A stretch of 64,000 nt of DNA from IMG/VR virus record IMGVR_UViG_3300020419_000004; one strand, 5' to 3'. Origin of the DNA: a virus. Numbering within the stretch: position 1 is the first letter of the stretch; each line of letters opens with the position of its first letter. A model generated the notes under the pieces. It worked only from the letters and a program-made list of their open reading frames with translations, was not told the origin of the DNA and searched no databases. The position numbers and the translations under genes are program-made. Of the stretch, positions 15,385 to 18,751 are shown one piece after another.

Positions 15385-15420
15385 ATAAATAAAGATGGTC
15401 ACACCATATTCAGTATTTAT
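15385..15420. promoter_or_regulatory. Face-to-face pair of late promoters
   Basis: ATAAATA at 15385-15391 (+) and TATTTAT at 15414-15420 (-). Confidence 0.75.
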
Positions 15421-16102
15421 GCCACAAGCTACATCTATTGAGAATTTTAAACAGGCAGTCCTCGGAAGGTCTGGTGGTATCTCTGCGTCTAATCTATATC
15501 AGTTTCAAATAGCTGTGCCAGAACTACCTGCAACGGGATACACTCTCTCAAAGCACTTCGGTCAAAATATGAACGAAGGAATCCAAGCAACAGATATGGT
15601 CAACTATCAGTTGAACATGCTATGTAATGAAATACAAGTACCTGGTGTTACCATGTCGTCATCTGATGTAAAAATGCCCCAGAAGGGTATGATACAGAAG
15701 GTTGCGAGTGCCAAAGTGTTCAATGAACTTGACGTTAGTTTCTATTGTGATGCAGACTCCTTGCCCTTTAAATTCTTTAGGACATGGCAAGACTTCATTA
15801 TAGGTGCTATTGAAAAACCCAGAGACATGTACTCTGGAGATCATACCATGTCTCAAATGCGTCATAAAGCATATGCACAAAGGTACTACGATCACTATAC
15901 ATGTGATATAATTATAGACAAGCTAGAAAAAAGCGGACAGAAGAAGAAGCAAAATAAGGAGGATTACCGTTTTGGTTTCCGTGCTAAATTAGTAAAAGCA
16001 TATCCTTACACTGTATCATCTATTCCATATTCTGCTGGTGCTGCACAACTTGTGAAAGTCACCGTCGGATTCTACTACGAGTATAGTCATTTAATTTACT
16101 GA
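15419..16102 (+). CDS. Tail-tube-like baseplate protein (gp54/gp19 family)
   Basis: LCNEIQVPG; ELDVSFYCD; FFRTWQD; LVKAYP..V..I; VTVGFYY. Confidence 0.75.
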   Translation: MPQATSIENFKQAVLGRSGGISASNLYQFQIAVPELPATGYTLSKHFGQNMNEGIQATDMVNYQLNMLCNEIQVPGVTMSSSDVKMPQKGMIQKVASAKVFNELDVSFYCDADSLPFKFFRTWQDFIIGAIEKPRDMYSGDHTMSQMRHKAYAQRYYDHYTCDIIIDKLEKSGQKKKQNKEDYRFGFRAKLVKAYPYTVSSIPYSAGAAQLVKVTVGFYYEYSHLIY

Positions 16103-16107
16103 TAATC

Positions 16108-16806
16108 ATGCCATTACCTGAAATTGTTACGCCAACGTACACGTTGACGGTGCCTTCTACTAAAAAGAAACTTAAGTATAGACCATTCCTTGTCAAGGAA
16201 CAGAAAGCATTAATCATAGCTCTAGAGCAACAAGACTCCGAGCAAACGCTAGAAGCGATAAAAACAGTACTGACCAACTGTATCATCACCAAGCATAATC
16301 TTGATGATATGGCTCTATTTGATATAGAGTTTATCTTCCTACAAGTACGTGCTAGATCAATCAGCGAGGAGATTGAGATGAAAGTTACATGTCCTGATGA
16401 TGGGGAGACTGAGGTCAATGTGTCATTCATGGTAGATGATGTCAAGGTCAACTTCCCTAAAGGACATAAGAACGTGTTCAAGATCAGTGATGACATCACT
16501 GTAGAAATGAAGTATCCAGACATGGAATACTTTGCTGCTATCACATTCTCATCTGAGAAGGTTGATCCGTATGAGTTAGTAGGTAAGTGTATCAAGAGAG
16601 TATACGTAGGTGAGGACGCAACTGGTTCATTTACACAAGATGAAGCGAGGGATTGGGTTGAGACTCTAACCAACTCCCAGTTTGGATTGATACAAGAGTT
16701 CTTTAATACTATGCCTACACTTCGTCATGTACTTAAGGTTAAAAACCCAAAGACACAGGTGGTAAATGAGGTCGTAATTGAAGGTCTTGCTGATTTTTTC
16801 GCATAG
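16108..16806 (+). CDS. gp26: Baseplate hub subunit (cyanophage gp26)
   Basis: MPLPEIVTPTYTL; YRPFLVKEQK; FDIEFIFLQVRARS; FFNTMP. Confidence 0.88.
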   Translation: MPLPEIVTPTYTLTVPSTKKKLKYRPFLVKEQKALIIALEQQDSEQTLEAIKTVLTNCIITKHNLDDMALFDIEFIFLQVRARSISEEIEMKVTCPDDGETEVNVSFMVDDVKVNFPKGHKNVFKISDDITVEMKYPDMEYFAAITFSSEKVDPYELVGKCIKRVYVGEDATGSFTQDEARDWVETLTNSQFGLIQEFFNTMPTLRHVLKVKNPKTQVVNEVVIEGLADFFA

Positions 16807-16823
16807 CCCTCTTCCATGAGGGC

Positions 16824-16997
16824 ATGATGAACTTCTACCAGACGAATTTTTCGTTAGTTCAACACCATAAATATAGCTTGACTGATATTGAAAACATGAT
16901 CCCGTGGGAACGAGACGTGTATGTAAACCTTCTATCTTCTCACCTCCAGAAGGAGAGAGAAAGAATAGATGAAGAACGCAGAAGACAAAACCGCTAA
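16824..16997 (+). CDS. gp51: gp51-like baseplate hub assembly chaperone segment (not in ORF track; probably the -1 extension of gp26)
   Basis: NFYQTNFSLVQHHKYSLTDIENMIPWERDVY. Confidence 0.85.
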   Translation: MMNFYQTNFSLVQHHKYSLTDIENMIPWERDVYVNLLSSHLQKERERIDEERRRQNR

Positions 16998-18751
16998 TGG
17001 CACAAGTAACCATAGAAGACTTAGCAGATCAACTCACTGAAGTGAGTGATAAGTTTGTCGCGTCCTTTGAAGAGACCATGGAGACTGAGGATGAACTCTT
17101 TACATTCCTCAGAGGTAGAGAGAGATGGTATATTGGTAAGACAACAGTTCAAGAGCAACAACGTACATATAATGTAACTCCAACTGAGAGTGAAGCACCC
17201 GTTGCAGCACCAGAAGAACCAGAAATATTACGAGGGACACACTCTCTACATGGTACGATACCAGATCCTAATGCATTTAAGATGCCAAAGATGCCTGACT
17301 TCGGTAAGATAGCAGCGTCATTTAAAAAAGGATTTGGCAAAGCAAAGAGCGTAGCAAAAAATATTGGGAAAAAAATTAGGAAGGGTGCTGCTGCAATAAC
17401 CAAACCTACCAAAGCACTCATAGGTGAAGCAGGTCCAGAAATAGTCGTTCCAATGCAGAAACTTGGGGATGCTATCAACAGTATATACAAGAAGGGTTCA
17501 AAGACCATGTTGGAAGCCACGACTGGATTCCTGAACTCGTTGCCATCGACTCCAAGTAAGGGGAAGGTGCTGTCACAGATTAATAAACTGAAAAACTTAT
17601 TTGGATTGGGAACTCTAAAGGTCAAAGGTGGATCCTTTGGACTGCCTAATCCTATAGAATGGTGGAATAAAGGTAGGAACGAACGCATACCTGATGAAGA
17701 TAAGGCATCATGGAAAGATTTGATGGAAGACGATCTGGCACAGAGAGGTCAGAGTGATGAATCATTTGAGAAAGGAGAAGCACCTCCATTATTAGGAAGA
17801 CCAGACCAAGCATTTAATCCATTCCGACCTGCAGACAAGGGTGGTCCTGGCTCAGGTCCTACACCTGCAGTCAGACAGGCAGTTGAAAGACCTATAAAAG
17901 GTCTGATGAATTTTGGTAAGGGATTGGCAGGTTCTCTTGGTGCTCAGGTCAATAAGTTTAAAGATAATAGAGCAAAGAGAAGTAAACCCATACCTACACC
18001 ACTAGGCACAGGTAAAGATATGTTTGGTCAAACTATCACCATGAATCCTCCCACGGAGTCTGCATGGAAGAAAGTCAGTGCAGCTGCTGCAGCTGATGGT
18101 GTCAACCTACCTAGTTCTGTTACCAGTGCATTCAGAAGTGTACAGGAGCAGCAAGATTTGTTAGATAATGCGGATGATCCTAATGTCATAACACCTGCAC
18201 CCCAAGGTATGTCACCACACCAACAAGGATGGGCTGTTGATATAGATCAGAACTCAGAAGCAAACCACTGGATGAGAGAGCATGGTCATAAGCATGGATT
18301 CCATTGGGAAGGTCCTTCAGATCCAGTTCACTTTGACTTCATAAACAATGAACCAAGAGATAAGTACGTACAACCAGATAAGGATCAGTGGTTACCAAAG
18401 GAGGGAGATAAGGGTGGAGCAACTACCACAGGTGGTAAGTTAGTATCAGTTATTGGTGACTTCCTTAAAAAGAAATTTAAGAAAGGTGATCCAAAAGATC
18501 TACAGTCATCTACTACAACTAATACCATAGCACCAAACGTATCACCAGAACAACAGACTGTAATGAATGCACCAGTGTCACAGAGTGGTAAGGATAAACC
18601 TGTAGCATTTGGTGTACCTATGGTAATTCCTGGTCCTACTGTAGTGATACCTGGTCCTCCACAGGTTTCAAAACTTGATCCTCAGGTCATGCGTCACCAT
18701 ATCGTAGATCCATTCGGTAAGGGTACAAGAGTAGAGGTGGCATATGTATAG
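16997..18751 (+). CDS. Tape-measure-like protein with M15/VanY-type peptidase domain
   Basis: ALIGEAGPEIVVP; SAFRS..EQ; SPHQQGWAVD; DPVHFDF. Confidence 0.7.
   Translation: MAQVTIEDLADQLTEVSDKFVASFEETMETEDELFTFLRGRERWYIGKTTVQEQQRTYNVTPTESEAPVAAPEEPEILRGTHSLHGTIPDPNAFKMPKMPDFGKIAASFKKGFGKAKSVAKNIGKKIRKGAAAITKPTKALIGEAGPEIVVPMQKLGDAINSIYKKGSKTMLEATTGFLNSLPSTPSKGKVLSQINKLKNLFGLGTLKVKGGSFGLPNPIEWWNKGRNERIPDEDKASWKDLMEDDLAQRGQSDESFEKGEAPPLLGRPDQAFNPFRPADKGGPGSGPTPAVRQAVERPIKGLMNFGKGLAGSLGAQVNKFKDNRAKRSKPIPTPLGTGKDMFGQTITMNPPTESAWKKVSAAAAADGVNLPSSVTSAFRSVQEQQDLLDNADDPNVITPAPQGMSPHQQGWAVDIDQNSEANHWMREHGHKHGFHWEGPSDPVHFDFINNEPRDKYVQPDKDQWLPKEGDKGGATTTGGKLVSVIGDFLKKKFKKGDPKDLQSSTTTNTIAPNVSPEQQTVMNAPVSQSGKDKPVAFGVPMVIPGPTVVIPGPPQVSKLDPQVMRHHIVDPFGKGTRVEVAYV

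Follow-up and report, generated by a model that had tools for sequence, protein, structure and literature searches.

In phage lambda the tail assembly chaperone gpG is approximately 140 aa in length and the slippery heptamer is G_GGA_AAG. The gpG and gpGT proteins reportedly arise through a -1 frameshift that is conserved in tail assembly chaperone genes (Levin et al. 1993; Xu, Hendrix & Duda 2004). Short and long chaperones have also been described for T4-like phages, where they are termed TAC-N and TAC-NC, the source being Vladimirov, Gautam & Davidson (Virology 2022;566:9-15, PMID 34826709, doi 10.1016/j.virol.2021.11.003) as cited in the PRFect paper (PMC10885494) and the phage Adele paper (PMC12846349). 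The citing passage of the PRFect paper attributes to Vladimirov et al. that some T4-like phages carry a short gene together with a fused long gene and no frameshift, and the corresponding passage of the Adele paper uses the terms TAC-N and TAC-NC and refers to poly-T -1 signals in T4-like phages. On the wording of these two passages the short/long chaperone frameshift in T4-like phages is already known, having been published in 2022, and the remark in a preliminary description of the present locus that it was not described for such phages is wrong. Direct literature searches yielded no paper on a gp26/gp51 frameshift, the prior work surfacing only through the citing papers, and no experimental proof of the frameshift in any cyanophage was found in the literature. 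In T4 itself, gp26 and gp51 are given as hub assembly chaperones, with gp51 being absent from the particle (Leiman et al. 2010, PMC3004832).

The locus analyzed here is located in 64,000 nucleotides of DNA of a marine cyanophage (IMG/VR record IMGVR_UViG_3300020419_000004), the whole of which is termed the window. It belongs to the same family as the T4-like TAC-N/TAC-NC system with the same two forms and a poly-T -1 signal ending TAC-N, and there is no demonstrable difference between the two as far as the citing papers describe the T4-like case. T4 differs in that gp26 and gp51 are encoded by two divergently transcribed genes without a T-run, whereas the window carries a single gene and a slip site. 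The arrangement resembles lambda gpG/gpGT in that the gene is placed between a tube-like gene and a candidate tape-measure gene, but there is no detectable sequence similarity to lambda gpG, and the window protein has a body of approximately 230 aa with a β-rich C-terminal half (ancestrally zinc-ribbon) and the heptamer U_UUU_UUC.

In the window all features of the junction lie on the plus strand. The gp26 ORF (16108-16806, 232 aa) occupies the 0 frame, corresponds to the short form TAC-N and has the 3' end GAT TTT TTC GCA TAG. This contains the slippery heptamer T_TTT_TTC (16794-16800) in the X_XXY_YYZ register with the 0 frame, followed by a 5-nt spacer (16801-16805) and the hairpin GCCCTC-TTCCAT-GAGGGC (16806-16823), a candidate stimulator with a 6-bp stem and a 6-nt loop. 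The TAG stop codon ending the short form (16804-16806) contributes its G as the first base of the stem. In the translated -1 frame a TGA (16791-16793) sets the upstream limit of the shift, and together with the 0-frame stop this means that the two ORFs can be joined by a -1 shift only inside 16794-16806 (13 nt). Starting at the first T of the run, the -1 frame stays open as far as a stop codon at 16995-16997 and reads FFRIALFHEGMMNFYQ..., with the extension of 65 aa plus stop (16800-16997) containing the annotated gp51 ORF (16824-16997). The predicted long form, TAC-NC, consists of gp26 residues 1-231 joined to these 65 residues to give 296 aa, with the predicted fusion junction ...GLADFF-RIALFHEG... 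and the predicted trans-frame junction peptide GLADFFRIALFHEG. The heptamer, spacer and hairpin of the preliminary description are thus all present in the sequence as given there. TTTTTTC occurs 12 times in the 64-kb window compared with 11.9 expected and is not rare by itself, so the weight of the heptamer rests on its position, frame and conservation.

Conservation was assessed over 94 junctions comprising the window, 13 phage records and 80 IMG/VR contigs found by searching with an alignment of the tail (the C-terminal extension), all distinct over 500 nt. The phage records represent six cyanophage genera, two other cyanophages, two pelagiphages, Sinorhizobium phiM7 and two KVP40-like vibriophages, with the whole set covering Kyanoviridae, Eurybiavirus, pelagiphages, phiM7, KVP40-like vibriophages and the IMG/VR contigs. 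Among cultured phages the closest relative is Prochlorococcus phage P-HM2 (on Prochlorococcus MED4) with 74% nucleotide identity, and one IMG/VR contig (L016) has a tail 100% identical at the protein level and a near-identical junction. An in-frame T_TTT_TTN is present at the equivalent site in all 94 junctions, the final base being mostly C and otherwise T or A, and in 92 of them it is placed exactly 108 nt from a conserved P-W-E motif located downstream. The entropy is zero across the six T columns of the run. The first T belongs to a codon that specifies S, N, D, A or F yet ends in T every time, compared with a background in the gp26 bodies of 0.74 for T-ending codons and with TTT making up 0.69 of Phe codons.

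The same short and long proteins could be produced with the ribosome unshifted if RNA polymerase added one U within the T-run, leaving part of the mRNAs with both ORFs in frame, and this transcriptional slippage is the main rival to a ribosomal frameshift. It agrees with the invariant feature of the family being a homopolymer of at least six T and with the downstream hairpin not being conserved. Bacterial and phage polymerases, however, usually slip efficiently only on runs of at least some 8-9 bases, and in most loci a C comes directly after exactly six T. In addition, the run keeps the X_XXY_YYZ register with the 0 frame in every locus, which is relevant to tRNA re-pairing and not to a polymerase. 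The published accounts point in the same direction in the passages concerned, with PMC12846349 calling these poly-T sequences -1 frameshift (slippery) signals and PMC10885494 explaining the title of Vladimirov et al. as referring to separate short and fused genes. Taken together, transcriptional slippage is considered improbable, and we infer a ribosomal mechanism in which one gene would give a short and a long chaperone through a -1 frameshift on the T-run, a reading to which a probability of roughly 0.77 is assigned. Longer runs are seen in some loci, with T7-T8 in 11 and T9 in L077. In L077, an IMG/VR relative, the nine T lie at the slip site (region 1495-1510) with the 0-frame stop directly after, a run length that would be more favorable to polymerase slippage.

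The column entropy by codon position follows a 0-frame pattern upstream of the run, and in the 24 nt just 3' of the run a -1-frame pattern is present (1.10/0.76/1.62), before any usable ATG. This switch of frame at the run indicates that the -1 frame is translated from the slip site onward, and, judged by these alignment columns, coding selection on the -1 frame begins at the slip site. The preliminary description had read the -1 frame as open and protein-like and running into gp51, and the open frame and its coding selection bear this out.

The entropy pattern also bears on the possibility that no recoding takes place and that gp26 and gp51 are made separately, gp51 starting at the ATG at 16824 or 16827 as annotated. 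This would agree with the separate annotation of both ORFs in GenBank/RefSeq, with the pair of ATG codons following GAGGG in the window and with an ATG at tail codon 11-12 in 15 of the 94 loci, mostly from the clade of the window. No gp51 start codon is conserved among the 94 loci, however, and in 54 of them the first tail-frame ATG is found at codon 21 or later, within the conserved domain. The residues FFRIxLxH, located upstream of any ATG, are conserved with -1-frame periodicity, and gp51 of the T4 type has the same tail fused in frame. In the window the only SD-like motif, GAGGG, is placed inside the stem 1 nt from the first of the two ATG codons, and the earlier view that independent initiation of gp51 is poor agrees with the missing conserved start. 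Two wholly separate proteins are on this evidence very improbable, although in the clade of the window, where the ATG codons at 16824/16827 directly follow the stem, some independent initiation of a 57-aa peptide may occur alongside the frameshift.

The arrangement could in principle be due to a mistake in sequencing or assembling the homopolymer, or to the recent decay of a single-frame gene. Homopolymers are error-prone and a single-frame fused form exists in T4-type phages, but this explanation is scarcely credible, as many laboratories and platforms have yielded the same frame arrangement in 94 distinct sequences, both of isolates and of metagenomes, with the 0-frame stop one codon past the heptamer in 78 of them. 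In six loci of the Pelagibacter phage Mosig type (L007, L030, L058, L065, L092 and L093) the 0 frame continues for 8 codons past the heptamer, giving an altered C terminus of the short form and a shift window of 46-58 nt.

The relationship to the T4 proteins is apparent from profile comparisons. The gp26 product matches PF12322 (T4_baseplate) with an E-value of 4.8e-62 and 209.9 bits compared with a curated cut-off of 24.5, covering profile positions 1-219, and matches phrog_150 (E 3.2e-68) over profile positions 5-232. The small -1 ORF matches phrog_634 ("hub assembly catalyst", E 9e-25) and also positions 242-280 of phrog_150. The two products thus match successive parts of phrog_150, a first hint that they form one polypeptide in some phages. 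T4 gp26 (208 aa) and T4 gp51 (249 aa) are both complete PF12322 proteins, and the gp51 proteins of Aeromonas phage phiAS4 and T4 each consist of a full PF12322 body (E 8.5e-46 and 3.9e-52, respectively) with an in-frame C-terminal tail, to which the -1 product of the window aligns column for column. The C terminus of T4 gp26 (...GLKEFF) coincides with the point where the 0-frame product of the window stops, and no T-run is present at the end of T4 gene 26 (GAG TTC TTT GAG). As the fusion has the architecture of T4 gp51 and the 0-frame product ends where T4 gp26 ends, the predicted 296-aa fusion corresponds, at the level of sequence, to T4 gp51, and T4 gp26 has its counterpart in the 232-aa product. 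The number of PF12322 genes follows the same division, with two in T4 and one each in the four frameshift-type genomes checked (phi-ST2, phiM7, HTVC008M and S-PM2). The tree of PF12322 bodies is unrooted with T4 gp26, the N-terminal body of T4 gp51 and phiM7 on long branches that meet, and for this reason it gives no order for the frameshift and two-gene states.

A CxxC...CxxC motif resembling a zinc ribbon is present in the second half of the protein in most relatives and in T4 gp26/gp51, with T4 gp51 giving weak zinc-ribbon matches. The gp26 of the window (approximately residues 95-100 and 212-217) has one of the four Cys left, with KNPKT in place of KCPKC as in many cyanophages.

The fold of gp26 was examined using an AlphaFold model generated from 71 sequences (pLDDT 85.6) and compared with 48,161 representative PDB chains. 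The three highest ranking matches are all to tail assembly chaperones of phages, namely the HK97 TAC (PDB code 2ob9), Bacillus subtilis YqbN (PDB code 3klu) and rbstp2171 (PDB code 3fgx), each with a Z score of 7.6, which is middling on the scale of the comparison tool and applies to a match covering the N-terminal 40% of gp26 only, with the next match at 4.5. The superpositions span gp26 residues 1-95 with 84-85 residues aligned, rmsd values of 3.8-4.1 and sequence identities of 2-10%. Foldseek comparison of the model with the PDB gave nothing at E ≤ 0.001, 2ob9 having the highest probability (0.66), and a profile search of PDB sequences gave chance-level matches only. The model comparison supports a tail assembly chaperone fold for the N-terminal domain of gp26. 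A predicted complex of gp26 with the 584-aa tape-measure candidate scored 0.00, a result that gives no verdict and counts neither for nor against an interaction.

The hairpin downstream of the heptamer has a calculated folding energy of -14.0 kcal/mol over a 45-nt folding window, with the 6-bp stem alone contributing approximately -12 kcal/mol (as in L017), and the 116-nt junction context has a z-score of -2.5 compared with shuffled sequences. Across the 94 loci the junctions fold better than control segments from the same genes (mean -7.7 versus -5.1 kcal/mol, Mann-Whitney p 2e-9), but only 26% lie beyond the 5th percentile of the controls and many loci have no convincing stem. Strong stems are found in approximately 20 loci, mostly with a spacer of approximately 5 nt, and are of three distinct designs. 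In the clade of the window (class A) the stem is conserved with 91% of positions paired and no compensatory changes, and in the class C clade only two pairs have double-sided changes, a number equalled by 16 of 500 shuffles. The lack of compensatory changes, together with the small proportion of junctions beyond the 5th percentile, means that the hairpin may be expendable or may in part reflect the coding sequence. It is clade-specific and not family-wide; in the clade of the window it is a reasonable candidate for a stimulator.

The canonical -1 signal of the preliminary description is accordingly borne out for the heptamer, which has the X_XXY_YYZ form and is retained in every junction aligned. 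For the stem at 5 nt, which is stable in the window, the picture is mixed, with no covariation in the clade of the window, weak covariation in class C and many relatives having no stem. The three designs occupy the same place 5 nt past the heptamer and are distributed by clade (L004/L013/L014/L051; L025/L033/L039-L041; and the window clade L016-L024). Class B stems are of the forms GGCTCA/TGAGTC and GGCGCA/TGCGTC, and class C stems have G-C to A-U changes at synonymous sites.

The gp26 gene is flanked by a tube-like gene and a tape-measure candidate. Directly upstream is a tube-like protein of 235 aa (15395-16102, plus strand) with matches to PF23849 Phage_TTP_2 (E 7.5e-18) and phrog_45 tail tube (E 2.3e-31), and its homologues in the relatives are annotated as baseplate tail tube initiator or tail tube protein. 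Downstream the order is a 584-aa protein (16997-18751, plus strand), a 459-aa protein, a gp27-like protein and gp5. The 584-aa protein has matches to PF02557 (E 2.1e-09), phrog_23178 and phrog_16823 TMP (E 5.2e-10), and in HTVC008M the large downstream gene is annotated as putative tail tape measure. Neither of the two downstream ORFs showed similarity to T4 gp29 in BLASTP, and a search of the downstream ORFs against NCBIfam gave nothing useful. The 584-aa neighbor is a tape-measure candidate by its position, composition and weak profile matches; of the tape-measure-like genes proposed downstream in the preliminary description, position and composition are in agreement and sequence similarity to T4 gp29 is not. 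The PF02557 match of the candidate is to a D-Ala-D-Ala peptidase domain of the VanY type, at residues ~348-438, and the motif GEAGPEIVVP is found close to residue 143. The VanY domain would mean that a cell-wall hydrolase is embedded in the inner protein of the tail.

In the proposed mechanism most ribosomes would remain in the 0 frame and terminate at the TAG (16804-16806) to release gp26, the short chaperone of 232 aa (TAC-N). A minority would slip back by one base, with two Phe tRNAs on U_UUU_UUC (16794-16800), a step in which the GC-rich 6-bp hairpin located 5 nt further on probably assists in the clade of the window. The shifted ribosomes would read the -1 frame to 16997 to produce the 296-aa long form (TAC-NC). 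The fold and gene order suggest, by analogy with lambda G/GT, that the shared body would coat the tape-measure protein made from the neighboring gene, and on the same analogy the extra C-terminal domain may recruit tube or hub subunits. The finished virion would be expected to contain neither form. The gp26/gp51 pair had earlier been proposed to be a G/GT-type chaperone system, which is supported by the conservation of the signal, the coding selection on the -1 frame, the T4 gp51 architecture of the fusion, the position between a tube-like gene and a tape-measure candidate and the fold of the N-terminal domain.

The stop codon of the -1 ORF and the ATG of the tape-measure candidate share bases (TAATG, 16995-16999), and in 53 of the 94 relatives the ATG of the next ORF overlaps the stop of the tail ORF by 1, 4, 8 or 14 nt. 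This suggests that synthesis of the tape-measure candidate could be translationally coupled to the shifted minority of ribosomes, a tentative and rather unlikely proposal, although overlapping starts are common in phage operons. If it were true, the frameshift would set more than the chaperone ratio, and the clade-specific hairpins would tune the dose of the tape measure as well as that of the long chaperone.

The junction is unevenly annotated in the public databases. In all 13 frameshift-type GenBank/RefSeq records inspected the tail ORF is left unjoined to gp26. P-HM2 has a gp51 annotated as 30 aa, S-RIM2 one of 45 aa and others one of 57 aa, and S-CAM1 and ACG-2014e have none, variation that arises from the first ATG being located inside the conserved domain in more than half of the loci. 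Hundreds of listed records still use names such as "baseplate hub subunit" and "assembly catalyst". As the central insight has already been published, the practical value of the present analysis is in annotation, and what remains is to correct this widespread error and to obtain experimental proof of the frameshift in cyanophages. The reading also accounts for the nature of T4 gp26 and gp51, which have long been recorded as hub chaperones with no known mode of action, and presents a single gene with a slip site and a pair of genes as two evolutionary solutions to one need.
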